A DNA stretch of 35,783 nucleotides from a virus, in the UHGV virus genome UHGV-0117379. One strand, 5' to 3'. The translations under genes and the position numbers were made by a program. Below the pieces are notes generated by a model. It saw nothing but the letters and a program-made list of their open reading frames with translations, ran no database searches and had not been told where the DNA came from. Of the stretch, positions 4,076-29,759 are shown one piece after another; within the stretch, counting starts at the first letter, position 1; each line of letters begins with the position of its first letter.

Positions 4076-4097
4076 TTGCGTTTTGGGGATATGAATT

Positions 4098-6120: not shown

Positions 6121-8531
6121 GCCATGCTGATATGAACAACTGCAGCGGCTTTAACGAGGTCGCCGCAGCATTCTCATGGAACAGCCCGAAAAAGGCCATT
6201 AACCCTTATCTGGACCCGGCGGAAGTTGCGCCGGTTTCTGCGCTTTCAAACCTGATCACTCTGTACGCTGCCGATAACGAGCAGGAACAACTGCGCCGCG
6301 AGGCACTGAGTGATCAGGTCTGGGAGCGTTATTTCTTTAATGAATCCCGTGATCCTGTCCAACGCGAAATGGAGCAGGATAAGCTAATTAGCCGGGCAAA
6401 GCTGGCGCATGAGCAGCAGCGTTTTAATCCAGACATGGCCATTCTGGCGGACGTCAACGCCCAGCCTTCCCATATCAGCAAGCCGCTGATGCAACGTATT
6501 AAATACTTCAGCAGCCTGGGCAGGCCAAAGGCTTATTCCCGCTATTTGCGTGAGACGATTAAGCCATGCCTGGAACGACTGGAGCATGTACGCGACAGTC
6601 AGCTATCCACTTCTTTTCGCTTTATGGCAAGCCATGAAGGGCTGGACGGCCTGCTGATCCTGCCTGAAATGAGTCAGGATCAGGTGAAACGCCTGTCCAC
6701 CTTGGTAGCTGCGCATATGAGCATGTGCCTTGATACAGCTTGTGGCGATTTGTATGCCACCGATGATGTTACGCCAGAAGAAATCCGCAAGACATGGGAA
6801 AAGGTGGCAGCGGAAACCCTGCGTCTGGATGTTATCCCGCCTGCGTTTGAGCAACTCCGTCGGAAAAGAAACCGCCGTAAACCCGTGCCTTATGAACTCA
6901 TTCCTGGTTCGCTGGCGCGTATGTTATGCGCCGACTGGTGGTATCGGAAATTATGGAAGATGCGTTGCGAATGGCGGGAAGAGCAGTTGCGTGCTGTTTG
7001 CCTGGTCAGCAAAAAAGCATCTCCCTATGTCAGCTATGAAGCCGTGATGCATAAACGTGAGCAGCGCCGTAAGTCGCTGGAGTTTTTCCGTTCTCATGAA
7101 CTGGTGAACGAAGACGGCGACACGCTGGATATGGAAGACGTGGTAAACGCCAGCAGCAGCAACCCTGCGCATCGCCGCAATGAGATGATGGCCTGTGTTA
7201 AAGGTCTGGAGCTTATCGCGGAAATGCGCGGTGACTGCGCCGTTTTCTACACCATCACCTGTCCGTCACGTTTCCATTCCACGCTAAATAACGGCAGGCC
7301 CAACCCGACCTGGACAAATGCGACGGTAAGACAAAGCAGTGATTATCTGGTCGGTATGTTTGCTGCATTTCGTAAGGCGATGCACAAAGCCGGATTACGC
7401 TGGTATGGCGTGCGGGTGGCTGAGCCGCATCATGACGGTACAGTTCACTGGCACCTGTTGTGTTTTATGCGCAAAAAAGATCGCCGCGCCATTACTGCTT
7501 TGTTGCGTAAGTTTGCCATTCGTGAAGACCGCGAGGAGCTGGGTAATAACACGGAACCACGCTTTAAGTCTGAGCTGATAAACCCGCGCAAAGGTACGCC
7601 AACAAGCTACATCGCGAAATACATCAGTAAGAACATTGACGGGCGTGGTCTGGCTGGCGAGATCAGCAAGGAAACGGGTAAATCCCTGCGTGATAACGCC
7701 GAATACGTTAATGCCTGGGCGTCTCTGCATCGTGTTCAGCAATTCCGCTTCTTTGGCATTCCGGGGCGTCAGGCTTACCGTGAACTGCGATTGCTGGCTG
7801 GTCAGGCGGCAAGGCAACAGGGGGACAAAAAAGCAGGTGCGCCGGTACTGGATAACCCGCGCCTTGATGCCATCCTGGCTGCCGCTGATGCTGGCTGTTT
7901 TGCCACCTACATCATGAAGCAGGGCGGCGTACTGGTTCCCCGCAAATATCACCTCATCAGAACCGCTTATGAAATCAACGAAGAGCCGACCGCCTATGGC
8001 GATCACGGTATTCGTATTTATGGCATCTGGTCACCCATTGCAGAGGGCAAGATCTGCACTCATGCGGTGAAGTGGAAAATGGTTCGTAAGGCCGTTGACA
8101 TTCAGGAGGCGGCAGCCGACCAGGGCGCTTGCGCCCCTTGGACTCGTGGCAATAACTGTCCCCTTGCTGAAAATTTGAACCAACAAGGGAAAGACAAATC
8201 AGCTGATGGGGATACCAGAACGGAGATCACCCGCATGGATGACAAGGAGTTGCACGATTACCTGCACAGTATGAGCAAAAAAGAGCGCCGGGAACTGGCA
8301 GCAAGGTTACGCCTGGTGAAACCGAAATGGCGTAAAGACTACAAACAGCGAATTACAGAGCATCAGCGTCAGCAGCTCGTCTATGAACTGAAGTCCAGAG
8401 GATTTGATGGCAGCGAGAAAGAGGTCGATCTGCTCCTTCGCGGTGGCAGTATTCCGTCAGGAGCAGGCCTGCGTATCTTCTATCGGAACCAGCGTTTGCA
8501 GGAAGATGATAAGTGGCGGAACCTGTATTAA
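6117..8531 (+). CDS. A: Replication initiation endonuclease (P2 gpA-like, rolling-circle HUH type)
   Basis: ATG 6117 overlaps the dam stop; HUH-like motif HWHLLCF and paired-tyrosine motif [10 protein letters not shown]; about 800 aa, at the P2 gpA position. Confidence 0.85.
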
Positions 8532-9403: not shown

Positions 9404-9622
9404 ATGTCAAGTATCGCCGCATTGAAGCTGGGTAATCCAGTTGAACGTTTGGCACGGGTTCTGAAAGAGAACCAGGACAAGCTCAATCTGAGTAAAGATG
9501 GTTTTGTGTCCGTAGATTTGTCCAACGAAGAAGCTATGAAAGCCATCCGAGATCAGATGGATAAGCTTGAAGGCATCAAAACGAGCACTGTTAAAGCAAA
9601 ATATTATTACAGAACCCGATAA
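9404..9622 (+). CDS. Hypothetical small soluble protein (72 aa)
   Basis: ATG 9404 with AAGGAGGGG RBS; stop overlaps the next start (TAATG). Confidence 0.6.
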   Translation: MSSIAALKLGNPVERLARVLKENQDKLNLSKDGFVSVDLSNEEAMKAIRDQMDKLEGIKTSTVKAKYYYRTR

Positions 9623-10464
9623 TGGCAACATTACTTTTAGCAGTGATTTTGGTTAGTGGTTTTATATATGTAAACCTATCACTTTCAACACGTTATAGAT
9701 ATAAGCGTTCCAATGGCTGGGACGCTTATTTTTTTGTGGCTGCATGGGGAATTGTCTTTTTCCTCGCTGGCGGCTTCCTTACCTTCGCTCTTAACATCAG
9801 CGGTGGGTTTCGCTGGTTTTCTAATGCGCTGAATCTGACTCCAGACAGCTTTAACGGGATGTTATCCACCACAACCGATAAACCGCAGCGCATCAATGAA
9901 ATTAAGCAAATCGCGTGGGTTGTGATTTCAATAGTTCTCGCGGCGCTGTTCGGTTGGCTAAACAAACGCCGTACTTCAAAAGGGGATCGCCGTTGGGATG
10001 CACTGGCAAAGGCAGTGGGAAACAATGCTTTTGAATCGCTGCTCATGGAAGCATCAGCTCGCCAGTTTCCTATCATTGCTACACTTTCATCACGCAAAAT
10101 CTATGTAGGGCTGGTGACTTGCCCTGCGTTGGAAAATGGATTGTCGGAACACCTTGAAATTCTCCCCTTGCTGAGCGGATATCGTGATAAAGACGACCTA
10201 ACGATAAATATCACGACAAACTATCATCAGCACTATCTTGATAGCGGTGTTATCAATGGGATGTCGCGCCTGAATATCCAGGATTTCCGTGTGCTTCTCC
10301 CTAAAGATGAAGTTGAAACCATCTCGTTTTTTGATACTGAAACGTATAACAAATTTAAAGAAAACGAAGCGCGTGACCGGAAAGACTGCCGCAAGTTGGG
10401 TGGTAAAAAGCCATCCGCACGCAGGAGAAAGACTGCTGGCGACGCAGAGCAGGGTAGTGCATGA
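9622..10464 (+). CDS. Membrane protein with three predicted N-terminal TM helices, unknown function
   Basis: Hydrophobic segments LLLAVILVSGFIYV, AYFFVAAWGIVFFLAGGFLTFAL and IAWVVISIVLAALFGWL, then a roughly 170-aa soluble domain; AT-rich. Confidence 0.65.
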   Translation: MATLLLAVILVSGFIYVNLSLSTRYRYKRSNGWDAYFFVAAWGIVFFLAGGFLTFALNISGGFRWFSNALNLTPDSFNGMLSTTTDKPQRINEIKQIAWVVISIVLAALFGWLNKRRTSKGDRRWDALAKAVGNNAFESLLMEASARQFPIIATLSSRKIYVGLVTCPALENGLSEHLEILPLLSGYRDKDDLTINITTNYHQHYLDSGVINGMSRLNIQDFRVLLPKDEVETISFFDTETYNKFKENEARDRKDCRKLGGKKPSARRRKTAGDAEQGSA

Positions 10465-10512
10465 CTATGCTGCATGAATTTGCATGATCGTTTGAGGATC
10501 GTTTTAGCTCCG

Positions 10513-10537
10513 GCCCGCCAGTTCAGGCGGGCTTTTT
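10513..10537 (+). terminator. Rho-independent terminator (GCCCGC-loop-GCGGGC followed by TTTTT)
   Basis: Read directly: stem 10513-10518/10527-10532, T-run 10533-10537, about 50 nt after the membrane-protein stop. Confidence 0.6.
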
Positions 10538-10581
10538 CATATCTCATGCAGGTGCATGAAAACCACTACACAAAGCGGGCA

Positions 10582-10600
10582 GGCGTGGCGGGGATACGAG
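10582..10600. other. Putative cos cohesive-end sequence GGCGTGGCGGGGATACGAG
   Basis: First 13 nt identical to the P2/186 cohesive-end consensus GGCG(A/T)GGCGGGGAAAGCA as I remember it (15/19 to 186). Preceded by five copies of TGCATGA. Confidence 0.4.
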
Positions 10601-10665
10601 CGCGCGCTCATTACTTTTATAATTCTAGGGTTATAATACAGGGCTATCTTTCTAGGAGAAAACAC

Positions 10666-12318
10666 ATGTCCTTAGAGTTTATCAAAGAACAGTTGTCAGA
10701 TTTTATCTCATCTACAGAACCAGAAGTAATGGCTATACAGGGTGAATGGGGAATTGGTAAAACCTATACTTGGAATACGTTCCTAAAAGATAATAAAGAT
10801 AAGGTTGCATTTAATAGATATAGTTATGTCTCTCTTTTTGGTATAAATTCACTAGATTCTTTAAAGTATTCTATTTTTGAGAATGCAATTACAAAGGAAT
10901 ATATTGGAAATAAACCTGATTTGGAGACAGCAACAACAAACGCAAGTGGACTTTTTGAATCGTTTTCTCGAAAAGCCGCAGGTTTGTTAAAAGAAGCTCC
11001 TGTTGTAAAAAACTTCTCTACGACACTTGAAGCAATGTCATTTCTGACCGTTTCTAAAATGATTGTAGTAATAGATGACTTAGAAAGGCGTGGCAAAAAC
11101 TTAGATGTTAAAGATGTTTTAGGGCTAGTATCTCTATTAAAGGAGCAGAAGGATTGTAAGGTGGTTCTATTGCTTAACAATGGCACAGCTAGTATGGAGG
11201 ATTATTCTACTTATAAAGAAAAGGTCATTGATAGAGATATCACTTACAATCCAACACCAGAAGAATGCGCAGATATAGCCTATAAAGGTGATTTTCATGT
11301 TTATAACTTGTTAAGTAAATATTCCATTTCTTTAGGTATCAAGAATATTCGAATCTTAAAAAAGATAGAACGTTTTTTCGTGTCCTTAACACCAAATATT
11401 ATAGGTGATGTTGAGACAATTTCAAATGAAGTTGCGCATTCATTAACTCTGTATTGTTGGAGCCATTACGGATTTTCTCCAGAGGGAGATGTGCCATCAC
11501 TAGAATATATTAGGGGAGTGAGGAATATATATACTTATAATGACAAGGAAGAAGGCCATGAGAAAGTCTGGCTTAATACCTTGCTTAAATATGGATATAG
11601 AAAAACGAATGATCTTGATGAGGTTCTTATTGATATGGTTAGATATGGCTATCTTGATAAGAGCAGTTTCCAAAGACAAATAAGCCTAAGGAATGAGGAG
11701 ATTACGCGTGATAATAAACGAGGTTCCTTATCTGAGGCATGGCAGTTCTTTCATAATTCATTTGATGACAATCAAAATCAGGTTGTTGACAAGCTATATC
11801 AAGCGGTGGTTGATGGGATGAAGTATGTGACTCCAAGTGATTTAGATAATGTTGTCGGACTATATAGGGATTTCGGAGAGAATGCTAAGGCGAGTGAATT
11901 GATTGAACAGTTTATTAATTATGGTAACGATGCTCTAAAGGAATATGTTCAATCTATTTATGTGAATGTTCATCCCGTAAGAGATGCTGAGTTGTTGTCA
12001 AAAATTCAAGCCTATTCTAATATTATAAATATTGATGGTTCAATATATGATGTTCTTAAGAAATTATCAGGTCAGAATGGTTGGTCTGATAGACATGAGG
12101 AAATATTGGATGCTGCTTCAGTAGATGACTACTATCAATTATTTAAAAATGTCATTCTTGATGGTGGTGATTCAATAATAGCTACGGCGCTTAAATTCGG
12201 AAATTATAGTAATGGTTCTGATAGAATGAATCGTATAGGGAAAAAGGCAAGGGATGCCTTGATAAGAATTGGAGATGAATCGGCGATTAATAAAATACGT
12301 GTAAGGCGATTTTTGTGA
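10666..12318 (+). CDS. KAP-family P-loop NTPase (candidate defence cargo)
   Basis: ATG 10666 with AGGAG RBS (track ORF starts at 10474). Walker A GEWGIGKT and KAP-type Walker B VVIDDLERR; AT-rich; own TATAAT boxes (10618-10623, 10632-10637) and a downstream terminator. Confidence 0.75.
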   Translation: MSLEFIKEQLSDFISSTEPEVMAIQGEWGIGKTYTWNTFLKDNKDKVAFNRYSYVSLFGINSLDSLKYSIFENAITKEYIGNKPDLETATTNASGLFESFSRKAAGLLKEAPVVKNFSTTLEAMSFLTVSKMIVVIDDLERRGKNLDVKDVLGLVSLLKEQKDCKVVLLLNNGTASMEDYSTYKEKVIDRDITYNPTPEECADIAYKGDFHVYNLLSKYSISLGIKNIRILKKIERFFVSLTPNIIGDVETISNEVAHSLTLYCWSHYGFSPEGDVPSLEYIRGVRNIYTYNDKEEGHEKVWLNTLLKYGYRKTNDLDEVLIDMVRYGYLDKSSFQRQISLRNEEITRDNKRGSLSEAWQFFHNSFDDNQNQVVDKLYQAVVDGMKYVTPSDLDNVVGLYRDFGENAKASELIEQFINYGNDALKEYVQSIYVNVHPVRDAELLSKIQAYSNIINIDGSIYDVLKKLSGQNGWSDRHEEILDAASVDDYYQLFKNVILDGGDSIIATALKFGNYSNGSDRMNRIGKKARDALIRIGDESAINKIRVRRFL

Positions 12319-12348: not shown

Positions 12349-13377
12349 CTAATTTAATGAGTAATCATTAAATGCTATGATTTTTTCATTTAGCCAAGTA
12401 TTAATTTCTATAAGCCTTTTTTGTAACGGAATTAATTCATTTCGGACAAAGACTTTACTAGCCTTTTCCACATCCCCAAACCCCCCAACATTATTCGGCA
12501 TTATCCCCATCATTTGCGGCGGCACGCGGTGTGCCGCCATCATGTCGTCCCGGCTCACGTTCTTAATATTCAAAAACTCATCCTTCGCTGCGACCTCTGA
12601 CAACGGGATAATCTGAAGCCCGTCCTTTTTGCCGTTAGGCGAGTACATAAACAGGTTGCGGAAGTTGCCCGGACCTTTGGCGCTTTTCATCGCATTGCGG
12701 AGGTTGTTCACATCTTCCTGGTTCTGCGCGGCATCGGTCATGTACATGATGAAGCCTGCATGACTGCCGTTAATGTAATACTTCCGGCGGAACAGCGTGG
12801 CGGACTCGTTGAGCAGGGCTGACGGAATGGCAGAAAGATAACCTGGCAGGCCGTAGATCTCCTGGTTGATGTCCGGTTCCATCAGATGAAAAATGCTGCC
12901 TTTCGTGAACTGATACTGCTGGGTTGTAATACCATATTGCACAAACCAGTAGGTATCCAGGTCTAATCCGCGTCGGGTGTATTTTGCCAGCGCAGGTTCA
13001 AGGGCGATAACTTCACCGAAGCGGTTCGTGCGTTTCTCCAGGTAGGCGTTACCAAATACCAGATAGTCCTGCACAAAACGTGAAAAAGCCTGCTGGCTGA
13101 GCAGCGGGTGAGGGATATAGGTGCTGGTCAGAATATTGCACTTTACTGCAATCGGTGAGCTGTGATGCACGGCGGCGCGGAAGGCTCGCGCCAGTCCGTC
13201 AAAACTCACTGGCGGCTCATACCAGCGATCTGTCTGTACGCATTCCACATAGTCCAGTCGTTCGCGGCGATCCAGTACTGGAATGGGATCGCCGAAGCTG
13301 AATGCTTCGGCTGAAGTCTGGCTTTTATGCTGGGTCTGGTTCTGCGACGCAGCGCGGTTCTTCTTACTCTTTCCCAT
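12349..13377 (-). CDS. Q: Portal protein (P2 gpQ-like)
   Basis: 342 aa from ATG 13377 (track ORF begins at a TTG one codon earlier); size and position match P2 Q; start overlaps the P stop. Confidence 0.85.
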   Translation of the reverse strand: MGKSKKNRAASQNQTQHKSQTSAEAFSFGDPIPVLDRRERLDYVECVQTDRWYEPPVSFDGLARAFRAAVHHSSPIAVKCNILTSTYIPHPLLSQQAFSRFVQDYLVFGNAYLEKRTNRFGEVIALEPALAKYTRRGLDLDTYWFVQYGITTQQYQFTKGSIFHLMEPDINQEIYGLPGYLSAIPSALLNESATLFRRKYYINGSHAGFIMYMTDAAQNQEDVNNLRNAMKSAKGPGNFRNLFMYSPNGKKDGLQIIPLSEVAAKDEFLNIKNVSRDDMMAAHRVPPQMMGIMPNNVGGFGDVEKASKVFVRNELIPLQKRLIEINTWLNEKIIAFNDYSLN

Positions 13378-15143
13378 CAAAAAATCTCCACAATATTACT
13401 GGTATTGGCGGACTCGCCCTGCAGTGGTTCGTTAAACAGTGCGTGCATTGTTGCCCACGCCAGATCGGCGTGGCTGGTTTCTTCGCTGCGGCTGGCTTCA
13501 TACGTCGGGCGGTTGCCACTGGCGGTGGTGGCGCGACGGATTGCCATGAATGACTGCGCAATGTCGGTGTGCCCGGCGTCAAACTCCAGACGGCGGTGGC
13601 TGATAATGTCGTAGGCCTTGAGTACCAGAGCGTTTTTAACGTTGGGGTTGTAGACAAACTCCCGGACGGCAGGAAAAAACGCTTTCACGTTCTCGTAAAC
13701 CCCGTGACCGACGCCGGTTGAGTCGATACCGATGTATGTCACGTTGTACTGTTCAGTCAGTTTTTTGATGGCGTCAGCCTGGGCGCGGAAGTCCATCCCG
13801 CGCCACTGGTGACGCTCAAGAATGCGGAACTTACCGCCCGGCACGGCTGGCGGTGCCACCACCACGCACCCGGCGCTGTCGCCGTTTTGCGTACCTTTTG
13901 CCGGGTCATAACCGATCCACACTTCGCGCCAGCCAAACGGGCGCAGGGCCAGTGCATGAAAGTCGGTCCAGACTTCCCAGCTGTCCACCATGCACGCCTG
14001 CAGCTCGCTGAGCGGAAACACGGACGCGAGATCGTCCACAAACTCGCACATCAGCAGGTTCTGGTATTCGTCCGGGCTGTACTCCATGCGCAACTGGTCG
14101 AGATCGAACAGGTTACATCCGCCGCGCACAGCATCTTCCACGGTGACTATCTGGCGGTATTGCCCGTCTGCGCACAGCAGGCCGGGGGCCAGATTGCTGT
14201 GGGACAGGTCGATGTCCACCTTATCGGCTTTGTTGCGCCCACGGTTGAACAGCGCACCGGACCAGAACGGATAAGCACTGTGTGTCAGGCTGGATGGTGT
14301 GGAAAAATAGGTTTGTCGCCATTTTTTGTGAATAGCCATACCGGAAGCCACTTTGCGCAGCTCCTGGAATTTCGGTATCCAGAAATATTCATCCAGATAC
14401 AGGTTGCCGTGGTAACTCTGGGCCGTGCGGGCATTGGTGCCGAGGAAGTAAAGCGTAGCCCCGTTAGGAAGCACCATCGGATCGCCTTTCAGCTCCACTT
14501 CCACTTCTTTGGCGAAGTCGATGATGTACTGTTTAAAGACGTGGGCCTGTGCCTTACTGGCGGAAAGGAAAATCTGGTTACGTCCGGTAAGCAGGGCGTC
14601 AATCAGGGCTTCACGGGCAAAGTAAAAGGTCGCGCCGATCTGGCGTGACTTCAGCAGGTTGCGGATGCGGTTGGTTTTTCCGGCTTCCCACCAGTGGCGC
14701 TGGTAGTTGAACATGGAGGAATGGAAGATTTCTTCCAGCTTCGCAATCTGTTCATCGGTGAAAACGTTCTTTTCCGGCTGACGACGCGGGCCTTTGTTGC
14801 GGTTGGCGACGTTAGGGTTTAAGTCGGCTTCGTTGCCGCCATTGTTAAACTTGCCGATCCGCGCGTGGCGCTCCGACTGGCGCGCCAGCAGGTCAATCTC
14901 TTTGAAATCTTTCCCTTCTTTGTGCTCCTTCATGATGAGCTGGCAGTAGCGTGCGGCGGTGGTGAGCTGCATCTGATCCAGCGGCCCATAGTCACCCCAC
15001 TTGTCGCGTTTCTTCCAGCTGTGAACGGTTGCAACTTTCTCGCCCAGCATTTCAGCAATGCGGGCTACGCGATATCCCTGAAAGTACAGCAGCATGGCCT
15101 GCCGACGGGGATCGAGATCTGCGGATGTCAGTGTGGTGTTCAT
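13377..15143 (-). CDS. P: Terminase large (ATPase) subunit (P2 gpP-like)
   Basis: 588 aa, ATG 15143; immediately upstream of Q on the same strand and divergent from the O operon, as in P2. Confidence 0.85.
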   Translation of the reverse strand: MNTTLTSADLDPRRQAMLLYFQGYRVARIAEMLGEKVATVHSWKKRDKWGDYGPLDQMQLTTAARYCQLIMKEHKEGKDFKEIDLLARQSERHARIGKFNNGGNEADLNPNVANRNKGPRRQPEKNVFTDEQIAKLEEIFHSSMFNYQRHWWEAGKTNRIRNLLKSRQIGATFYFAREALIDALLTGRNQIFLSASKAQAHVFKQYIIDFAKEVEVELKGDPMVLPNGATLYFLGTNARTAQSYHGNLYLDEYFWIPKFQELRKVASGMAIHKKWRQTYFSTPSSLTHSAYPFWSGALFNRGRNKADKVDIDLSHSNLAPGLLCADGQYRQIVTVEDAVRGGCNLFDLDQLRMEYSPDEYQNLLMCEFVDDLASVFPLSELQACMVDSWEVWTDFHALALRPFGWREVWIGYDPAKGTQNGDSAGCVVVAPPAVPGGKFRILERHQWRGMDFRAQADAIKKLTEQYNVTYIGIDSTGVGHGVYENVKAFFPAVREFVYNPNVKNALVLKAYDIISHRRLEFDAGHTDIAQSFMAIRRATTASGNRPTYEASRSEETSHADLAWATMHALFNEPLQGESANTSNIVEIF

Positions 15144-20819: not shown

Positions 20820-22331
20820 ATGCGCCCCAAAATTGGTGATTTTGAATTTGGTGAGGTTTATGGAGAGAATGAGGTATTATTTCTCGATAATTACTCGAAA
20901 TATTTTTATGATATAAATAATTCATTAAGTAAACTTGATAGAAAAAATAAAATGCTCGTAATTGGCAGGAAGGGGACGGGTAAGACATTGCTTGTTAATG
21001 TCTACTGTAACGCCAAGCGAAAAAATAATTATATTGCAGTTGTGGAATCATTAAAAGATTTTGTTTTTCATGAACTTACTCACTTTCAGGGGCAGGATGT
21101 GTCTTCCACAAAATATGTACCAATTTTCAAGTGGATGATATTGGTCAATCTTGCTAAGAATATTGTAAGTAATAAAAAAGGATTTAGTGAGGATAAAATA
21201 GTTCATTTGGAAAGTTTTTTACGTTCTTTTGGCCATGTCGCGGGCGAGTTAAGGCCTGAGCAAACAGTTGAAATAACTAGGGAGTACCAAGCGTCGGGTG
21301 AGGTTGGTATCGGATTTAGATTCCCAGTATTACGTGGTGAAGCCAAAGCAAAAGATGGTGAGGTCGAGAAAACAAAAGAAACAAAAAAGAATTATTTGGA
21401 ATGTATGGAATCTTTGCAGTGTTTTATTGTTGACATGCTAAAAGAGAGTAATAAAAAAATATATGTATTTTATGATGAGTTAGATGATAAGTTTGATGCA
21501 ACAGTTGAATATAAAAATGCAATGATAAGTTTTTTAAATGCTGTTGTGTCAATTAATAAAACTCTAATGCAAAATAAAATAGATGCTAAAATTGGTGCAG
21601 TTATTCGTCATGATATAATAAATACTTTTTCATCGCCGAATATTAATAAAATCATTGAAGATAACTCTGTTACACTTGATTGGTGTTCTGCTGGAGAACG
21701 AGCAAGTGATTCTGAGATTTTTGATATGATTGCTTTTAAGATCAAAAACTCCACTGATTATTATAATGATTTAAATGGTTCTAATTTGTTCGGGAAAATT
21801 TTCACTGAGAGAGTTGCAGGTGAGCATAGCTCTATTTATATTTTACATAGAACTCTAGGTCGCCCAAGAGATGCCGTTAGGATGCTAACTTATATTCAAG
21901 ATGAATATGGAGAAAATACTGAAAGATTTGAAAGTTCCATGTTTACAAAGATTTCTAAAAAATACTCATCTTATCTTTTACGTGAAATTAGATCTGAGCT
22001 TGCGGGACATTTAAGTGATTCAGAAATAGATGACAGTTTTTCTCTTTTACGTTCAGTAAAAAAAAGAGGTTTCACTCCACATTTAATCAAGGAAAAATTT
22101 GAAGAATTGAAGTTAGGAGATGGTACATTAACGCTTAATAAAATACTGAGTTGTTTATTTAAAGTCGGTGCTATCGGGAATGTACTCAGGAGATCTAAAA
22201 CAGATGGCGGAGATGTTTATTTGTGGTCATTTAATGATGAAGATTTAGAAATGGACCCAACGTTGAATTTTGAAATACACTGTGGTTTGTGGGATGCACT
22301 AGGAATTATCAAGCCTAAACTTAGGCAATAA
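20820..22331 (+). CDS. P-loop NTPase (503 aa), candidate single-gene defence moron
   Basis: Walker A GRKGTGKT and Walker B IYVFYDELDD; AT-rich; own promoter and a perfect terminator; inserted between S and V. Confidence 0.8.
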   Translation: MRPKIGDFEFGEVYGENEVLFLDNYSKYFYDINNSLSKLDRKNKMLVIGRKGTGKTLLVNVYCNAKRKNNYIAVVESLKDFVFHELTHFQGQDVSSTKYVPIFKWMILVNLAKNIVSNKKGFSEDKIVHLESFLRSFGHVAGELRPEQTVEITREYQASGEVGIGFRFPVLRGEAKAKDGEVEKTKETKKNYLECMESLQCFIVDMLKESNKKIYVFYDELDDKFDATVEYKNAMISFLNAVVSINKTLMQNKIDAKIGAVIRHDIINTFSSPNINKIIEDNSVTLDWCSAGERASDSEIFDMIAFKIKNSTDYYNDLNGSNLFGKIFTERVAGEHSSIYILHRTLGRPRDAVRMLTYIQDEYGENTERFESSMFTKISKKYSSYLLREIRSELAGHLSDSEIDDSFSLLRSVKKRGFTPHLIKEKFEELKLGDGTLTLNKILSCLFKVGAIGNVLRRSKTDGGDVYLWSFNDEDLEMDPTLNFEIHCGLWDALGIIKPKLRQ

Positions 22332-22411: not shown

Positions 22412-22457
22412 ATTCTAAATAGATGAATTAGTCTTTGTTCTGTTTGATAATTTGGAA

Positions 22458-23036
22458 ATGAATACACAACTGACAGAAATCATGCGCCTTATCACCAACC
22501 TGATCCGCACTGGTGTAGTCACCGAAGTGGACAGGGAAAACTGGCTTTGCCGGGTGAAAACAGGCGACTTAGAAACCAACTGGATCAGCTGGCTGACCCT
22601 GCGTGCCGGGAATGCCCGGACATGGTGGCGACCATCGGAAGGTGAGCAGGTGGTGCTGCTGAGTCTGGGCGGCAATCTGGAGACCGCCTTTGCGCTGCCC
22701 GCTGTCTATTCGAATCAGTTCGCACCACCGTCGACGTCGGCGGACGCCTGCGTGACAGAACATCCTGACGGTGGCTGGTTTGAATACGAACCCGCCACCG
22801 GGCGCTGGTATGTCAGGGGCATCAAATCCATGGTTATTGAGGCTGCCGACAATATCACCCTGAAAACCAGTGAGTTTGTGCTGGAGGCTGACCGCACGCG
22901 TATTAATAGTGAAGTAGTGATCAATGGCGGCGTTACCCAGGGCGGCGGTGCGATGAGTTCTAACGGAATTGTGGTTGATGCACATCAGCATACTGGCGTC
23001 CTGAAAGGCGGCGACACAACCGGAGGCCCGGTATGA
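22458..23036 (+). CDS. V: Baseplate assembly protein V (spike; P2 gpV-like)
   Basis: ATG 22458 (track ORF starts at TTG 22452); size and position match P2 V. Confidence 0.8.
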   Translation: MNTQLTEIMRLITNLIRTGVVTEVDRENWLCRVKTGDLETNWISWLTLRAGNARTWWRPSEGEQVVLLSLGGNLETAFALPAVYSNQFAPPSTSADACVTEHPDGGWFEYEPATGRWYVRGIKSMVIEAADNITLKTSEFVLEADRTRINSEVVINGGVTQGGGAMSSNGIVVDAHQHTGVLKGGDTTGGPV

Positions 23037-23392
23037 CGCTTTATAGCGGGATGAACAATACCAGCGGCAAAGCTATTACTGATATTGACCATCTGCGCCA
23101 GTCGGTGCGGGACATTCTGCTGACACCGCAGGGTAGCCGCATTGCCCGCCGGGAATATGGTTCCCTGCTGTCGGCACTGATAGACCAGCCACAAAATCCG
23201 GCGTTACGCCTGCAGGTCATGTCGGCAGTGTATGTGGCGCTGAGTCGCTGGGAGCCACGGCTGACGCTGGATTCCATCACCATCAACAGCAACTTTGACG
23301 GTTCTATGGTGGTGGAGCTGACCGGGCGGCGGAATAACGGTGTGCCTGTGTCCCTTTCCGTATCAACAGGAGCAGAGAATGGCAGTGATTGA
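23033..23392 (+). CDS. W: Baseplate protein W (P2 gpW-like)
   Basis: 119 aa, start overlaps the V stop. Confidence 0.8.
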   Translation: MTLYSGMNNTSGKAITDIDHLRQSVRDILLTPQGSRIARREYGSLLSALIDQPQNPALRLQVMSAVYVALSRWEPRLTLDSITINSNFDGSMVVELTGRRNNGVPVSLSVSTGAENGSD

Positions 23393-24287
23393 CCTTTCGC
23401 AGTTGCCTGCGCCGCAGATTGTGGATGTGCCGGACTTTGAGACGCTGCTTACCGAACGCAAGGCAGAATTTGTGGCGCTTCATCCGAAAGATGAGCAGGA
23501 AGCAGTGATCCGCACGCTGGAACTGGAATCTGAACCCGTCACCAAATTGTTGCAGGAGAATGCTTACCGTGAGTTGCTTCTGCGCCAGCGCATTAACGAA
23601 GCCGCGCAGGCTGTGATGGTGGCTTACGCGATGGGCGGCGATCTTGACCAGCTCGCTGCCAACTACAACGTGAAACGCCTGACGGTGACGCCTGCTGATA
23701 ATGACGCTGTGCCGCCCGTTGCGGCTGTGATGGAAAGCGATGAAGCGTTACGCCTGCGTGTGCCCGCAGCCTTTGAAGGGCTTTCAGTTGCGGGGCCAAC
23801 TGCAGCTTATGAATTTCATGCACGAAGCGCCGACGGTCGGGTGGCGGATGCCAGTGCAACCAGCCCGGCACCTGCAGAGGTGGTGCTGACTGTTCTTAGC
23901 CGCGAAGGCGATGGAACTGCAGAAAAAGACCTGCTGGACGTGGTGGAAAAAGCTCTGAACAGTGAGAACGTCCGCCCGGTGGCTGACCGTCTGACGGTTC
24001 GCAGCGCAGAAATCATCCCGTACCGCGTGGAAGCCACCATTTTTCTCTATCCGGGACCGGAAGCAGAGCCGGTAATGGCAGCGGCAAAAGCCAGTCTGCA
24101 GAAGTATATCGCCAGTCAGACGCGTCTTGGCCGGGATATTCGCCGTAGCGCCATCTTTGCCGCCCTGCATGTTGAGGGTGTGCAGCGTGTGGAGCTGGCT
24201 TCGCCGCTGGCGGATGTGGTCCTGAACAAAACACAGGCGGCATCATGTACGCAGTGGAGCGTAACCAACGGAGGAACGGATGAATAG
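23379..24287 (+). CDS. J: Baseplate protein J (P2 gpJ-like)
   Basis: ATG 23379 (MAVIDLSQLPAPQIV...), resembling the P2 J N-terminus as I recall it; track ORF starts earlier at 23340. Confidence 0.8.
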   Translation: MAVIDLSQLPAPQIVDVPDFETLLTERKAEFVALHPKDEQEAVIRTLELESEPVTKLLQENAYRELLLRQRINEAAQAVMVAYAMGGDLDQLAANYNVKRLTVTPADNDAVPPVAAVMESDEALRLRVPAAFEGLSVAGPTAAYEFHARSADGRVADASATSPAPAEVVLTVLSREGDGTAEKDLLDVVEKALNSENVRPVADRLTVRSAEIIPYRVEATIFLYPGPEAEPVMAAAKASLQKYIASQTRLGRDIRRSAIFAALHVEGVQRVELASPLADVVLNKTQAASCTQWSVTNGGTDE

Positions 24288-24885
24288 TCTGCTGCCACCG
24301 GGTTCAACACCACTGGAGCGCCGACTGGCGCAAACCTGCAGCGGGATTTCTGATCTGCAGGTGCCGCTGCGTGACTTGTGGAATCCGGCAACCTGTCCGG
24401 TCAGTTTCCTGCCTTATCTCGCCTGGGCGTTCTCTGTGGATCGCTGGGACGAGGGCTGGACAGAAAGCGTCAAGCGCCAGGTGGTGAAGGATGCTTTTTA
24501 TATTCATCAGCATAAAGGGACCACCAGTGCCGTGCGGCGGGTGGTGGAGCCGTTCGGCTTTCTGATCCGCATTATTGAGTGGTGGCAGACCGGAGAGGCA
24601 CCGGGCACGTTTCGCCTGGATATCGGCGTGCAGGACCAGGGCATCACTGAAGATACCTATCTGGAACTTGAGCGACTGATAAGCGATGCCAAACCATGTA
24701 GCCGTCACATGATCGGCATGTCCATCAATCTGCAGACCAGCGGCCCGCATTGGGTGGGAGCCGCCAGCTATCTTGGCGAAGAAATCACGATCTATCCGTA
24801 TATCAACGAAACAATTATTTCCGGCGGCACCGCGCATGAAGGCGGGGCGGTCCATGTTATTGACACAATGAGAGTGAATCCATGA
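24280..24885 (+). CDS. I: Baseplate protein I (P2 gpI-like)
   Basis: 201 aa between J and H. Confidence 0.75.
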   Translation: MNSLLPPGSTPLERRLAQTCSGISDLQVPLRDLWNPATCPVSFLPYLAWAFSVDRWDEGWTESVKRQVVKDAFYIHQHKGTTSAVRRVVEPFGFLIRIIEWWQTGEAPGTFRLDIGVQDQGITEDTYLELERLISDAKPCSRHMIGMSINLQTSGPHWVGAASYLGEEITIYPYINETIISGGTAHEGGAVHVIDTMRVNP

Positions 24886-26435
24886 GCACAAAATTTTATA
24901 CCCTGCTGACGGATATTGGCGCGGCGAAACTTGCCAGCGCCGCCGCGCTCGGTGTGCCTTTAAAAATTACCCATATGGCGGTCGGCGATGGCGGCGGAAC
25001 ATTACCAACGCCGGACGCAAAGCAGACAGCACTGGTAAATGAGAAACGCCGGGCTGCGCTGAATATGCTCTATATCGACCCGCAGAACAGCAGCCAGATT
25101 ATTGCTGAACAGGTGATCCCTGAAAACGAGGGCGGTTGGTGGATACGTGAAGTGGGCCTGTTTGATGAGTCCGGGGCATTGATTGCCGTGGGCAACTGCC
25201 CGGAAAGCTATAAGCCGCAACTGGCTGAAGGCAGCGGGCGTACCCAGACCGTGCGTATGGTGTTGATTACCAGCAGCACGGACAATATCACCCTGAAAAT
25301 CGACCCTGCCGTAGTGCTGGCAACCCGCAAGTATGTGGATGATAAGGTACTGGAGCTGAAGGTGTACGCGGATGATCAGATGGCAAAACATCTTGCCGCA
25401 CCGGACCCGCATTCACAGTATGCACAGAAAGAAAGTCCTACGTTTACCGGGACACCCAAAGCGCCAACGCCAGCGGCGGGGAATAACACCACGCAGGTTG
25501 CGACCACCGCGTTTGTTCAGGAGGCACTGACGGCTCTTATTAATGGTGCGCCAGCCACGCTGGACACGCTGAAAGAAATAGCCGTAGCCATTAACAATGA
25601 TCCGAAATTCAGTACCACCATTAACAATGCGCTGGCACTGAAAGCGCCGCTGTCGAGTCCGGCACTCACCGGAACGCCAACAGCCCCCACGGCGGCGCAG
25701 TCGGTCAACAATACACAGATTGCCACCACGGCTTTTGTGAAATCGGCGATTGCGGCAATGGTGGGTTCTGCACCTGCGGCACTGGATACACTGAACGAAC
25801 TGGCGGCGGCGCTGGGGAATGACCCGAACTTTGCCACGACAATGCTTAATGCACTGGCAGGTAAACAACCGCTGGACAATACGCTGACTAATTTGAGTGG
25901 AAAGGATGTTGCTGGTCTTCTCGCATACCTTGGTTTGGGAGAAGGCTCTGCATTACCTGTTGGTGTCCCTGTTCCGTGGCCTTTAGCAACTCCGCCAACA
26001 GGCTGGTTGAAATGCAACGGTGCGCCATTTATCGCCTCCCAATATCCGAAGCTTGCTCTCGCTTACCCCGGTCTTTTGCTGCCAGACCTGCGCGGTGAAT
26101 TTATTCGTGGATGGGATGATGGGCGAGGGGTTGATCCAGGGCGTTCGATAGGGTCTAGCCAGGGATGGTCTCCAGGATCGCACGTCCACGGCTTGGAAAT
26201 TTGGACATCGGCTAGCGGCAGCATCCCAACTAGTACAACTGTACCATCGCAGAACGGTAGGGAGTTAGGGCCAGCAGCGACAGCAGGCGACGGCGGCGTT
26301 ATCCGATCACTTGGCGGCAGCGGCGGGACAAACAACAACTCTGCTACTTCTGTGACTACGCAGAGCCCCACCTTTGGAAACCAAGAAGGTTACCCGCGCA
26401 ACGTCGCATTTAACTATATCGTGAGGGCAGCCTGA
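24882..26435 (+). CDS. H: Tail fibre protein H; C-terminal segment lies inside the invertible region
   Basis: 517 aa at the P2 H position; crossover site at 25918-25943 lies within the coding sequence. Confidence 0.8.
   Translation: MSTKFYTLLTDIGAAKLASAAALGVPLKITHMAVGDGGGTLPTPDAKQTALVNEKRRAALNMLYIDPQNSSQIIAEQVIPENEGGWWIREVGLFDESGALIAVGNCPESYKPQLAEGSGRTQTVRMVLITSSTDNITLKIDPAVVLATRKYVDDKVLELKVYADDQMAKHLAAPDPHSQYAQKESPTFTGTPKAPTPAAGNNTTQVATTAFVQEALTALINGAPATLDTLKEIAVAINNDPKFSTTINNALALKAPLSSPALTGTPTAPTAAQSVNNTQIATTAFVKSAIAAMVGSAPAALDTLNELAAALGNDPNFATTMLNALAGKQPLDNTLTNLSGKDVAGLLAYLGLGEGSALPVGVPVPWPLATPPTGWLKCNGAPFIASQYPKLALAYPGLLLPDLRGEFIRGWDDGRGVDPGRSIGSSQGWSPGSHVHGLEIWTSASGSIPTSTTVPSQNGRELGPAATAGDGGVIRSLGGSGGTNNNSATSVTTQSPTFGNQEGYPRNVAFNYIVRAA
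25918..25943. repeat. Invertase crossover site (hix/gix-like, left), inside H
   Basis: TTCTCGCATACCTTGGTTTGGGAGAA; its 3' 14 nt are the exact reverse complement of part of the right site; central dinucleotide TT. Confidence 0.6.
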
Positions 26436-27037
26436 TGAATAAAGCCGTATTAAATAGCGAACTCATTACTACAAAGGCAGGAAACATTACCGTTTATAAT
26501 TTTGATGCTGAGACGAAGGAATATCTTTCCACATCAACCGAATACCTTGCTGTGGGTGTCGGTATTCCGGCGTATTCATGCTTAGATGCACCAGGTACAC
26601 ATAAAGCCGGTTATGCAATCTGCCGCTCTGCAGATTTTAACTCATGGGAATATGTGCCAGACCATCGCGGTGAAATCATCTATAGCACCGAAACAGGAGA
26701 ATCGAAAGAAATCACATCTCTGGGTGATTACCCTGAAAATACAACCACTATCGCCCCGTTAACGCCATATGATAAATGGGATGGTGAGAAATGGGTGACG
26801 GATACTGAGGCACAGCATAGCGCCGCAGTAGAAGCGGCAGAAGCACAGCGCCAGTCACTGATTGATGCAGCAATGTCTTCCATCAGTCTGATTCAACTGA
26901 AATTACAGGCCGGACGGAAGCTGACGCAGGCAGAAACAACCCGACTTAACGCTGTGCTGGATTATATTGACGCGGTGACGGCAACAGATACCAGCACCGC
27001 GCCTGATGTCATCTGGCCTGAACTGCCGGAGGCGTAG
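26435..27037 (+). CDS. G: Tail fibre assembly protein (P2 gpG-like)
   Basis: 200 aa immediately after H; start overlaps the H stop. Confidence 0.75.
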   Translation: MNKAVLNSELITTKAGNITVYNFDAETKEYLSTSTEYLAVGVGIPAYSCLDAPGTHKAGYAICRSADFNSWEYVPDHRGEIIYSTETGESKEITSLGDYPENTTTIAPLTPYDKWDGEKWVTDTEAQHSAAVEAAEAQRQSLIDAAMSSISLIQLKLQAGRKLTQAETTRLNAVLDYIDAVTATDTSTAPDVIWPELPEA

Positions 27038-27449
27038 GCCATTCAATATCTGGCGCACCGGAAGTATCGACCAGTTCCAGTGCGTCCAGATAATCCAGCC
27101 ACAAATTATATTGCACCAGTTCCTCACCTTTCAGGCGACCAATCGCCGCTTTACCAGGCCATTGCTTACTGTTTATGTATTCGTTGACCTGATTAATCAA
27201 TTGCTGCTTTTTCAGTTCGGCTGCGGCAATTTGTTCCTCATGAGTTGGCGGTGGAATATCAATCCATGCAGGCATTCCGTCGATGACACCTCTGTATTTT
27301 CCTTCTGGTGCTTCCTTCATAAATTCGGCAGCAACAGTGTCGTCAATTTCGATTCCATCATCGGGCCATTCGCCGGATTCCTGATAAGCGATTTTAAGCT
27401 CCACAGGGAAAAACGCATTTTTATCGGCACTGAAAATATATTTCTGCAT
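27009..27449 (-). CDS. Alternative tail fibre assembly protein (inverted orientation)
   Basis: 146 aa, convergent with and overlapping G by 29 nt; C-terminus VDTSGAPDIEWP parallels the G C-terminus TDTSTAPDVIWP. Confidence 0.7.
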   Translation of the reverse strand: MQKYIFSADKNAFFPVELKIAYQESGEWPDDGIEIDDTVAAEFMKEAPEGKYRGVIDGMPAWIDIPPPTHEEQIAAAELKKQQLINQVNEYINSKQWPGKAAIGRLKGEELVQYNLWLDYLDALELVDTSGAPDIEWPTPPAVQAR

Positions 27450-27451
27450 TT

Positions 27452-27811
27452 CTACCGTCCTATCGAAATATAACTGAATCTGTATTGCTGTGAGATATCA
27501 CTGGTTGCCACACGCCACGCTGAATTACTGATATGTTCAAAATTTACAGACAAAACCTGCGGGGCAGGAATCGACGGGTCTGACTGAACGGCATCAGACA
27601 TAACACTGACTGAAACCATCGGCTGATTAGGGAATGGTATAGGGAAGTGTCCACTGATAAAGCGGGTCGTGTTTCCTGAAAAAGTGCCAAACTGAACAAT
27701 ATATCCACCTGGTAGCCTGAACCATCCCGAACCAGAAGCGAATGCTCCCATATCCGGTATCTGATTATCTCCTGTGCCCACATCCCTTTTCGCCGCTTCT
27801 CCCAAACCAAC
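27452..27811 (-). CDS. Alternative tail-fibre C-terminal cassette (promoterless; fuses to H after inversion)
   Basis: Minus-strand frame shares GLGE with H at the crossover and is in the same codon phase relative to the central TT/AA dinucleotide; track ORF 27452..27850 adds a spurious N-terminus. Confidence 0.6.
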   Translation of the reverse strand, partial: VGLGEAAKRDVGTGDNQIPDMGAFASGSGWFRLPGGYIVQFGTFSGNTTRFISGHFPIPFPNQPMVSVSVMSDAVQSDPSIPAPQVLSVNFEHISNSAWRVATSDISQQYRFSYISIGR

Positions 27812-27822
27812 GTTTAAGAAAA
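27797..27822. repeat. Invertase crossover site (hix/gix-like, right), next to the invertase gene
   Basis: TTCTCCCAAACCAACGTTTAAGAAAA resembles the Hin/Gin 26-bp site as I remember it (TTCTTGAAAACCAAGGTTTTTGATAA); central AA. Confidence 0.6.
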
Positions 27823-27877
27823 TGCAGAGGTAACAGCTAACTGGCATCATCTCCGGTTTTTATTCAGGGGGATGATC

Positions 27878-28444
27878 ATGCTTATTGGCTATGTACGCGT
27901 GTCAACAAATGACCAGAACACCGATTTGCAACGTAATGCACTGAACTGCGCGGGATGTGAGCGGATTTTTGAGGACAAAATCAGTGGCACTAAGTCCGAC
28001 AGACCGGGGCTGAAAAAACTACTCAGGACACTATCGGCAGGAGACACGCTGGTTGTCTGGAAGCTGGACAGGTTGGGGCGCAGTATGCGGCATCTTGTTA
28101 CGCTGATAGAAGAGTTGCGCCAGCGTGGTGTGAATTTCAGAAGCCTGACTGACAGTATTGATACCAGTACCCCAATGGGCCGTTTCTTTTTTCATGTCAT
28201 GGGTGCCCTAGCTGAAATGGAACGCGAACTGATAGTTGAACGTACCAGGGCGGGGCTGGCTGCAGCTCGTGATAAAGGCAGAGTAGGTGGACGCCGTCCT
28301 AAGTTGACCACCGAACAGTGGGCACAGATTGGACGCTTACTCGAGGCCGGAGAATCAAGACAGCGTATTGCACTGATTTTTGATGTGGGTGTTTCCACAA
28401 TTTATAGAAAATTTCCGGCAAATAAGAGTAATGAATCCCCCTGA
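27878..28444 (+). CDS. Serine recombinase DNA invertase (Hin/Gin/Cin/Pin family)
   Basis: MLIGYVRVSTNDQNTDLQRNAL... is near-identical in pattern to the Gin/Hin N-terminus including the catalytic Ser region; ATG 27878 preferred over 27872 on RBS spacing. Confidence 0.9.
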   Translation: MLIGYVRVSTNDQNTDLQRNALNCAGCERIFEDKISGTKSDRPGLKKLLRTLSAGDTLVVWKLDRLGRSMRHLVTLIEELRQRGVNFRSLTDSIDTSTPMGRFFFHVMGALAEMERELIVERTRAGLAAARDKGRVGGRRPKLTTEQWAQIGRLLEAGESRQRIALIFDVGVSTIYRKFPANKSNESP

Positions 28445-28492
28445 ATCAGCATTATGTTGATTATCCCTGCAAGCAGACAAATACCGTTATTT

Positions 28493-28510
28493 TGTGTGAA
28501 TAACGACACA
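28493..28510. promoter_or_regulatory. Ogr-type late-promoter dyad TGT-N12-ACA upstream of FI
   Basis: TGTgtgaataacgacACA read directly; centre about 85 bp upstream of the FI ATG. Confidence 0.5.
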
Positions 28511-28586
28511 ACTGCGCTTAGCTGTTTGTCAGGCACAATCACTTCAACATAGGGCGAAGCCTAATCCAATCAGGAGGTTCGCCACT

Positions 28587-29759
28587 ATGGCTCAGGATTA
28601 CCACCACGGGGTGCGCGTTGTTGAAGTCAACGAAGGCACCCGATCTATTACCACGGTGAGCACCGCCATCGTGGGTATGGTCTGCACGGGCGATGATGCC
28701 GATGCAAAAATGTTTCCTCTTAATAAACCCGTGCTGATCACTGATGTGCTGACTGCCAGCGGTAAAGCGGGTGAGTCCGGTACTCTGGCCCGTTCGCTGG
28801 ATGCCATCGCTGACCAGGCAAAACCCGTGACCATTGTTGTGCGTGTGCCGCAGGGTGAAACGGAAGACGAAACCACGACCAATATCATCGGCGCAGTGAC
28901 TGCTGAAGGTAAAAAAACAGGTATGAAAGCCCTGTTATCTGCCCAGTCACAGCTCGGCGTTAAACCGCGCATTCTCGGCGTGCCAGGCCACGACACCAAG
29001 GCGGTAGCTACTGAGTTGCTGAGCGTGGCGCAAAGCCTGCGTGGATTTGCTTACCTGTCAGCGTATGGCTGCAAGACAGTGCAGGAGGCGATCACTTACC
29101 GCGAAAACTTCAGCCAGCGCGAAGGGATGCTGATCTGGCCTGACTTTACTGGCTGGGACACGGTGCTGAATGCCGAAGCAACGGCATATGCCACCGCCCG
29201 TGCGCTTGGTCTGCGCGCCAAAATTGACGAGCAGACCGGATGGCACAAAAGCCTGTCCAATGTGGGCGTGAACGGTGTCACCGGAATTTCTGCAGATGTG
29301 TTCTGGGATCTGCAGGACCCGGCAACCGATGCAGGTCTGCTGAACCAGAACGACGTCACCACGCTTGTGCGTAAAGACGGTTTCCGCTTCTGGGGGTCCC
29401 GCTGCCTGAGTGATGACCCGCTCTTTGCCTTCGAAAACTACACCCGCACGGCGCAGGTGCTGACGGACACGATGGCAGAAGCACACATGTGGGCGGTGGA
29501 TAAACCGCTTAACCCGTCGCTGGCCCGCGACATTATCGAAGGTATCCGCGCCAAAATGCGCAGACTGGTCAGTCAGGGCTATCTCATTGGTGGTGATTGC
29601 TGGCTGGATGAGTCGGTGAACGACAAAGACACGCTGAAAGCCGGAAAACTCACCATCGACTACGACTACACGCCAGTGCCGCCACTTGAAAACCTGATGC
29701 TGCGTCAGCGCATCACCGATCAGTACCTGGTGAATTTCGCCAGCCAGGTCAGCGCGTAA
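28587..29759 (+). CDS. FI: Tail sheath protein (P2 gpFI-like)
   Basis: 390 aa, CAGGAGG RBS; position and size match P2 FI. Confidence 0.85.

Follow-up and report, generated by a model that had tools for sequence, protein, structure and literature searches.

Evidence for a two-state invertible C-terminal module in the tail-fibre gene of a P2-like prophage

The tail-fibre gene H of the prophage studied here is followed by a second, oppositely oriented set of tail-fibre sequences and by a gene for a serine DNA invertase, and this arrangement raises the question of whether the C-terminus of H is fixed or can be exchanged by inversion. We analysed the window, by which we mean the whole stretch of 35,783 nucleotides, and we conclude with high confidence that it is a complete P2/186/Fels-2-like prophage in which H carries a two-state invertible C-terminal module flipped by the invertase. 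The region contains the following features:

24882-25929, plus strand: constant N-terminal part of the tail-fibre gene H (about aa 1-349; Pfam Phage_tail_fib over aa 1-150, E=3.6e-65)
25918-25943: left crossover site, inside H, TTCTCGCATACC-TT-GGTTTGGGAGAA, with the dinucleotide TT at 25930-25931
25932-26435, plus strand: cassette 1, the H C-terminus in use now, with a Collar domain (Pfam Collar, aa 361-408) and a variable tip
26435-27037, plus strand: tail-fibre assembly gene 1, TfaE-like (Pfam Caudo_TAP, E=1.6e-32)
27009-27449, minus strand: tail-fibre assembly gene 2, TfaP-like (Pfam Caudo_TAP, E=9.3e-34)
27452-27808, minus strand: cassette 2, the alternative H C-terminus, with a gp53-like C-terminal domain (Pfam Gp53-like_C, E=3.1e-9)
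27797-27822: right crossover site, beside the invertase, TTCTCCCAAACC-AA-CGTTTAAGAAAA, with the dinucleotide AA at 27809-27810
27823-27877: spacer from the right site to the invertase start, with the motif TGGCATCAT and with GGGGGA, which is likely to serve the invertase as ribosome-binding site
27878-28444, plus strand: serine DNA invertase, 188 aa (Pfam Resolvase, E=6.9e-53; HTH_7, E=1.4e-15)
27899-27962, plus strand: putative recombinational enhancer in the 5' part of the invertase gene, placed by positional homology

The two crossover sites are imperfect dyads of 26 bp that lie in inverted orientation, each with 12-bp half-sites around a 2-bp core, and the left one encodes ..LLAYLGLGE.. 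within H. In a repeat search the two sites form the top inverted repeat of the window (27 nt, 81% complementarity), and their perfect-dyad pattern had no chance match in 100 shuffles. We also scored the window with a weight matrix that was built solely from the Mu gix and Fels-2 sites and is thus independent of this window. Over the 35.8 kb the two 26-mers rank first and second, with 29.4 and 25.1 bits, and the third-best score is 10.6 bits; the maxima from 200 shuffles have a mean of 12.1 and a highest value of 25.2. The initial annotation had proposed such a pair, two inverted 26-bp hix/gix-like sites with TT in H and AA beside the invertase and about 1.9 kb between them, and repeat search and matrix agree on it. 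The sites are separated by 1853 bp, and the stretch bounded by the two crossover dinucleotides measures 1881 bp. The core dinucleotides TT and AA agree once one site is reverse-complemented, as is required for religation. The right site is degenerate in its outer half, where CGTTTAAGAAAA matches the half-site consensus at 8 of 12 positions, and this degeneracy is kept in relatives, e14 included; the repeat common to both sites amounts to just 15-18 bp. The matrix scan found no third gix/hix-type site in the 35.8-kb window, the sign that would have pointed to a shufflon-like system of multiple inversions such as those of p15B or one EPEC prophage.

As judged with Pfam and PHROGs, the region has the layout of an invertible tail-fibre module, with a constant N-terminus outside the segment and two convergent, in-frame C-termini inside it, each accompanied by a chaperone gene. 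On the plus strand, cassette 1 matches phrog_523 ('tail collar fiber', E=1.5e-60) and is 52% identical to StfE of e14, the start of assembly gene 1 overlaps the stop codon of H (TGATG), and the product of this gene is 89.5% identical to e14 TfaE. On the minus strand, cassette 2 is silent as a fibre in the orientation given and matches the C-terminal ends of phrog_2557 and phrog_1396, and the product of assembly gene 2 is 56% identical to e14 TfaP. The two assembly genes are convergent, with an overlap of 29 bp at their 3' ends. When 25930-27810 is flipped in silico, the junction reads ...AYLGLGE-AAKRD... and an open 468-aa H protein results; E. coli LR-33, a genome in the flipped state, has a matching H annotated with 468 aa. 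The constant N-terminal part is identical in this protein and in the 517-aa protein of the orientation given. Two of the publicly available loci, L002 and L043, carry cassette 2 joined to H in frame. The initial description of the segment, with an H C-terminus and assembly gene on the plus strand and alternatives to both on the minus strand, is in agreement with the Pfam domains, and its claim that the alternative C-terminus shares the codon phase and the GLGE junction is borne out by the in-frame 468-aa fibre. Cassette 2 belongs to an ORF at 27452-27850 on the minus strand whose ATG start lies outside the segment. The alternative cassette had initially been called promoterless; a scan of 25700-28700 for promoters and terminators gave sites no more numerous than in shuffles, which speaks neither for nor against that description.

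The invertase gene lies directly after the right site, and an alternative in-frame ATG at 27872 would make its product two residues longer. Judged by its sequence, the enzyme is a full-length and intact invertase of the Gin/Pin family. The catalytic serine is unmutated, Ser9 being present in the MLIGYVRVSTNDQ motif and aligned to that of Gin; the DRLGR motif is Gin's, and in the alignment to the Gin structures PDB 3UJ3 and 4M6F every aligned catalytic-core position agrees. The match to Gin reaches 313 bits (E=3e-93), whereas gamma-delta resolvase scores 119 bits. The enzyme had been called Hin/Gin-type; the invertase subclass stands, but the closest relatives are PinE of e14 (86% identity) and the Fels-2 invertase (85%), and not Hin or Gin (75% for Mu Gin).

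In Hin, residues K47, K/R48 and K/R51 of helix B, together with Q151, R154 and L155, contact Fis and the enhancer, and these contact residues are conserved solely in Fis/enhancer-dependent invertases (PMC3798978). In the alignment, Hin K47/R48/K51 line up with K46, K47 and R50 in RPGLKKLLR (counted from MLIGY, offset -1), and Hin Q151/R154/L155, which belong to helix 1 of the DNA-binding domain, with the Q, R and L in WAQIGRLL. A putative enhancer can be placed in the invertase gene by position. The hin enhancer has ATTTA and TAATG between two Fis sites, about 100 bp from hix (PMC3798978), and here two Fis-like cores (27899-27913 and 27948-27962) flank ATTTG (27924-27928) and TAATG (27934-27938). 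These cores, centred at positions +29 and +78 of the invertase gene, stand at equal gene positions in Mu gin and in the Fels-2 invertase gene, the G-N13-C motif that defines them being very loose. The +29 core came from a Fis-core scan (G-N13-C with an AT-rich centre) of the window, Mu and Fels-2, which found no pair about 48 bp apart; the +78 core came from reading the three printed sequences, and it has a GC-rich centre and emerges only when the AT-rich requirement is dropped. The spacer motif TGGCATCAT resembles TGGCATGAT, which is found upstream of Mu gin and of the Fels-2 invertase gene.

We propose that the 188-aa Pin/Gin-family invertase binds the two 26-bp sites as dimers and that it would be activated by host Fis bound to the putative enhancer within the 5' end of the invertase gene. 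Both sites would be cut at the central TT/AA, half of the tetramer would rotate by 180 degrees, and religation would leave 25930-27810 flipped. In the orientation given, the late operon would produce the 517-aa fibre, with the constant part and the Collar-domain tip, together with the TfaE-like chaperone; in the flipped orientation it would produce the 468-aa fibre, with the same constant part and the gp53-like tip, together with the TfaP-like chaperone. The virions released by a population of lysogens would be of two kinds that differ in their receptor-binding tips, and this would amount to bet-hedging on host range. The alternative tips probably let the phage attach to different hosts: the two tip domains, one Collar-type and the other gp53-like, are unrelated, and homology to known systems points to a host-range switch. 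We infer dependence on Fis and the enhancer, as well as the flipping rate and the receptors bound.

The same phage occurs in both orientations. IMG/VR loci were gathered by a 41-mer inside cassette 2 and then classified by orientation. Locus L014 is colinear with the window as given (99.86% identity), whereas L043 aligns to it in three blocks, with breaks at 25927-25944 and 27796-27810, that is, inside the sites; against the flipped window, L043 gives a single block of 9,997 bp with 99.63% identity. The initial annotation had named the presence of one orientation only as evidence against a switch, and what we observe is one phage, at 99.6-99.9% identity, in both orientations with the breakpoints in the sites. 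Exact copies of the 517-aa H protein, the state as given, are found on 197 public contigs, and exact copies of the flipped, 468-aa form on 97, which have the source name Klebsiella pneumoniae and of which the longest is 5.48 Mb. The segments of E. coli LT2-3 and LR-33 show 97.1% identity only with one copy flipped. Of 5,426 complete E. coli genomes, 118 have the right junction in the state of the window and 750 match the flipped junction at a coverage of at least 80%, the latter a count that includes more distant elements (83-97% identity, partial coverage) and is not phage-specific. The segment is interrupted by IS1 in the relative CFSAN051542, and IS1 has been reported in the segment of kp52145 (PMC7826664).

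An unlikely alternative is that the main pay-off goes to the lysogen and not to the virion, inversion setting which tip domain is made in the cell, either in a chimeric fibre or from a short ORF; the protein would mask a surface receptor and keep other phages from adsorbing, the role claimed for e14 StfE2 under PinQ/PinE. The sites and cassette types are homologous to those of the e14 P segment, and the analogous e14 chimera blocks T2 adsorption (PMC12529663). The 132-aa ORF at 27452-27850 on the minus strand begins at a conserved ATGATG outside the segment, in the spacer 27823-27877, and all the Pin-like relatives that we examined share its leader, MMPVS.YLCIFLNVGLGE. That this ORF, consisting of a hydrophobic leader (MMPVSCYLCIFLNVGLGE) and the tip facing the invertase, is expressed in the lysogen as a free receptor-masking domain seems to us slightly more doubtful again. 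The leader lacks a well-spaced Shine-Dalgarno sequence, GGAG abutting the ATG, and its non-synonymous variation (C/R/H, Y/N) suggests conservation at the DNA level, for example of an invertase promoter. The scan of 25700-28700 gave no promoter-like signal above chance. Moreover, the e14 claim comes from a single laboratory and a defective prophage, whereas the prophage here is complete and apparently functional with H in the late tail operon, so that the classic virion role suffices. If the short ORF were expressed in this way, its product would act in superinfection exclusion or anti-phage defence, the switch would toggle a host phenotype besides virion host range, and a function recently claimed for e14 StfE2 would be found in an intact P2-like phage.

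It is considerably less probable that the switch is a fossil, in which the repeats and cassettes remain after inversion has ceased and the orientations in the databases go back to old events or to recombination of the repeats with each other through RecA. Such a history would fit with both orientations of this element being known from assembled sequences and with the decay of some relatives, namely those with IS1 in the segment (CFSAN051542 and kp52145; PMC7826664). However, the invertase is full length and agrees with Gin throughout the aligned catalytic core, each of the two states is represented by contigs with 99.6-99.9% identity to the window, the breakpoints fall at the site cores, and the presence of exact copies of the 517-aa protein on 197 contigs and of the 468-aa protein on 97 implies frequent and recent flipping. 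A shared repeat of 15-18 bp is too short for efficient RecA recombination. That the orientation polymorphism is an assembly artefact is scarcely credible, because, although assemblers can be misled by inverted repeats, a repeat of about 15-18 bp is far shorter than reads, both states occur in many independent complete genomes as well as in IMG/VR contigs, and the reading frames are intact in both.

The reading that we prefer, a two-state module flipped by the invertase, has consequences for the annotation of such prophages. Annotation pipelines list the silent cassette as a 'gp53-like domain-containing protein' in its own right and give the fibre a label that depends on the state, so that one prophage looks like two phages in comparative work and in host-range prediction. 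The two tips would define the hosts that can be reached by induced virions of this Klebsiella / E. coli P2-like phage.

The system is an already known, textbook device in an ordinary member, as in Mu (G/Gin), P1 (C/Cin), e14 (P/Pin) and Fels-2. At the left site, the inner 16-mer (TTGGTTTGGGAGAAGG) is identical to the published crossover repeat of the P segment of e14 in E. coli K-12 (PMC12529663), a segment that inverts experimentally (PMC4272514, PMC12529663). The inner 16-mer of the right site matches at 15 of 16 positions, and over the full 26 bp the site beside pinE differs by 1 nt. Like this window, e14 has a convergent two-cassette layout with the invertase directly downstream, but its segment is 1797 bp long compared with 1881 bp here, and its tips differ (52% identity between cassette 1 and StfE, 56% for the TfaP-like protein). 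The fibre gene of e14, a defective lambdoid remnant, is truncated, whereas H is full length here and lies in an intact P2-like late operon.

Fels-2, a P2-like phage of Salmonella, has the same order of H, assembly gene, inverted assembly gene, inverted H C-terminus, invertase (Fin, STM2702) and FI sheath gene. Its sites are of the same type as those here, yet they have a TC/GA core and other inner half-sites; the cassettes of Fels-2 exceed those here in length and have unrelated tips, and the DNA outside the segment is only about 72-83% identical to the window. P2-like prophages of EPEC E2348/69 flip in clonal cultures (PMC4272514), and one of the EPEC prophages has three repeats and four states, whereas this window has two sites only.

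The same logic is seen in the G segment of Mu with Gin and the C segment of P1 with Cin, where a constant Sc is combined with alternative Sv/Sv' tips and U/U' chaperones, the invertase lies beside the right site, and the sites are likewise 26-bp dyads with a 2-bp core. Mu and P1 belong to other families than the P2-like phage here, however, the G segment of Mu is about 3 kb with a TC/GA core, and neither Mu nor P1 has tips homologous to the ones found here. Hin, which acts at hix in Salmonella flagellar phase variation, is of the same invertase subclass, and the residues through which it touches Fis and the enhancer are conserved here. The putative enhancer of the present invertase gene would lie about 120 bp from the nearest site. 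Hin, with its gene inside the segment, flips a promoter, whereas the invertase described here is encoded outside the segment and a coding C-terminus is exchanged.

The two crossover sites proposed in the initial annotation, one inside the tail-fibre gene H and one beside the invertase gene, lie in inverted orientation with central TT and AA at the coordinates it gave, and they form the region's strongest inverted repeat. By its ORF layout and family hits the window is a complete P2/186/Fels-2-like prophage, which also carries capsid, lysis and tail-completion genes.

Features of the prophage and of the invertible segment
736-1944, minus strand: integrase
6090-8531: replication protein A
12349-15143, minus strand: portal and terminase genes
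22452-26435: baseplate and fibre genes V, W, J, I and H
25918-25943: left site, TTCTCGCATACC-TT-GGTTTGGGAGAA
within the segment, plus strand: C-terminal 167 residues of H, with a Collar domain
26435-27037, plus strand: first Caudo_TAP assembly gene, its ATG overlapping the H stop codon
27009-27449, minus strand: second Caudo_TAP gene
27452-27808, minus strand: gp53-like C-terminal domain (118 residues), preceding the second Caudo_TAP gene
27797-27822: right site, TTCTCCCAAACC-AA-CGTTTAAGAAAA
27878-28444: invertase, 188 aa, with Resolvase and HTH_7 domains
from 28587: tail sheath gene FI, then tube, tape measure, U and D

The perfect-dyad pattern of the sites had no match in 100 shuffles. To avoid circularity, a half-site weight matrix was built from the Mu gix and Fels-2 sites only, taken from annotated G-segment boundaries and a dyad scan. 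Across the 35.8-kb window it gave its two highest scores, 29.4 and 25.1 bits, to these sites, with the next-best 26-mer at 10.6 bits and a mean per-shuffle maximum of 12.1 over 200 shuffles. The same scan of the 35.8-kb window found no third site, so the switch is a simple one with two states and not of the shufflon type.

Each tip matches PHROGs tail-fibre families at the C-terminal end. The alternative cassette had been described as in phase with H, and this holds when 25930-27810 is reverse-complemented in silico: the frame is kept, H becomes an open 468-aa protein and its junction reads ...AYLGLGE-AAKRDVG...

Sight of one orientation only was part of what the initial annotation said would refute it; four lines of evidence instead indicate that the segment flips, both orientations being seen. 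In a collection of 15 billion proteins, the exact predicted 468-aa H occurs on 97 contigs, named K. pneumoniae, and the 517-aa form on 197. We also scanned IMG/VR with a 41-mer from inside the silent cassette and classified the orientation of the returned loci. One of these, L043, is 99.63% identical to the flipped window over one unbroken block of 9,997 bp, whereas against the window as given it falls into three blocks with breaks at 25927-25944 and 27796-27810, which are the shared cores of both sites. L043 represents the same phage, because the block takes in the unusual insertion of an ATPase gene ahead of gene V; a second locus, L014, aligns colinearly to the unflipped window (99.86%). 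Between two E. coli chromosomes the segment is 97.1% identical only after one copy is flipped, and one of the two, LR-33, has an annotated 468-aa H. Junction probes found the window's right junction in 118 of 5,426 complete E. coli genomes and a flipped-junction match in 750 of the 5,426, a set that includes more distant elements. We infer some rate of flipping in this strain, and a change of host range through the two different tips.

Several related loci were also observed (NZ_CP063214.1, our H13 and H43; NZ_AP045766.1, H19; NZ_CP020835.1, H35; L040; L051). Two related P2-like prophages of E. coli ERP001 are in opposite switch states. Three assembly genes, or a duplicated silent cassette, are listed for some relatives, which may be multi-cassette versions. 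Others have IS1 inside the segment, as has K. pneumoniae kp52145 (PMC7826664).

Over its full length the invertase is 75% identical to Mu Gin, as aligned to two solved structures (3UJ3, 4M6F), and Ser9, the nucleophile, is present. Its identity is 85% with the Fels-2 invertase and 86% with e14 PinE. Hin residues K47, K/R48 and K/R51 in helix B, and Q151, R154 and L155 in helix 1 of the DNA-binding domain, are reported to be conserved only in Fis/enhancer-dependent invertases (McLean et al., PMC3798978); the window's invertase has K46, K47 and R50, numbered one below Hin, and Q..RL in WAQIGRLL. Within the first 85 bp of its gene, two G-N13-C cores (27899-27913 and 27948-27962), a loose motif, are symmetrically placed around ATTTG and TAATG, and Mu gin and the Fels-2 invertase gene have such cores at the same positions. 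The hin enhancer, which lies about 100 bp from hix, is described as having ATTTA and TAATG between its two Fis sites (PMC3798978). This layout fits a putative recombinational enhancer in the 5' part of the gene, loose as the motif is, and inversion would then depend on Fis.

A perfect 12-nt inverted repeat, ATTCAGGGGGAT / ATCCCCCTGAAT at 27862-27873 and 28435-28446, flanks the invertase ORF exactly, from the ribosome-binding region to just beyond the stop codon. The closest relatives have it too, Fels-2 and Mu do not, and it may mean nothing, because about 0.4 such pairs are expected by chance in 3.8 kb.

The silent cassette is part of a 132-aa minus-strand ORF (27452-27850), named by annotation pipelines 'gp53-like domain-containing protein', which starts with ATGATG outside the segment, in the spacer next to the invertase gene, and continues across the right site. 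The analogous e14 product is claimed in a 2025 paper to block T2 adsorption (PMC12529663), and the leader MMPVS.YLCIFLNVGLGE is kept in every Pin-like relative examined, e14 stfE included. That leader nevertheless varies non-synonymously and has no well-spaced ribosome-binding site, and a similar adsorption block by the ORF's product in this prophage is unlikely.

Between 22458 and 31000 the window shares 99.05% identity with the GenBank contig 'Klebsiella phage KP12 clone KP12_3' and 95-98% with E. coli prophages; Fels-2 is about 83-85% identical outside the variable region. The exact H and invertase proteins occur in public data under the source names Klebsiella pneumoniae and Enterobacteriaceae. 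The KP12_3 record (OM835953.1), a 99%-identical P2-like contig, stands under Vequintavirinae taxonomy; it is likely to derive from a prophage and to have been deposited along with a lytic phage unrelated to it. The annotation splits its H gene into two pieces (3007-4275 and 4317-4559, locus coordinates), which may reflect a frameshift or sequencing error. Just ahead of the integrase, a TetR-family regulator gene (23-613, plus strand) is probably host DNA, so that the window's start would be outside the prophage.

Tail-completion gene S is separated from baseplate gene V by the gene for a P-loop ATPase of 503 aa that belongs to the Sll1717 family (20820-22331, plus strand; NCBIfam NF047389, E=1.2e-80; phrog_13260), an insertion that the window and L043 have in common. 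Since the alignments of KP12_3, the E. coli relatives and Fels-2 begin only at 22458, it is an accessory-gene (moron) insertion and possibly a defence gene. It weakly matches an 'anti-phage protein' model, well under the model's cut-off, and PADLOC gave no match for it. Two further accessory genes lie 3' of replication gene A (9622-12318, plus strand), the first of 280 aa (phrog_3630, function unknown) and the second of 614 aa, which has a P-loop NTPase domain of the KAP family and hits the PADLOC candidate system PDC-S49 (E=5.7e-28). This is probably a cargo for defence, at a hotspot already known in P2.

The tail-fibre switch is a known device, correctly identified, and not a novelty, because it is matched by several described systems. 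Fels-2 has the same gene order and genomic place, and Mu G follows the same logic. At the same hotspot, a survey of P2-like phages describes a DNA invertase and the inversion of genes next to it (bioRxiv 10.1101/2024.10.15.618418), and flipping within clonal cultures was shown for e14 and EPEC P2-like prophages by sequencing and PCR (PMC4272514). The e14 P segment comes closest. Its repeats were published as TTGGTTTGGGAGAAGG and CCTTCTCCCAAACCAA (PMC12529663): the left is identical to the inner 16-mer of the window's site and the right agrees at 15/16 positions. The first assembly protein of the window has 89.5% identity to e14 TfaE.
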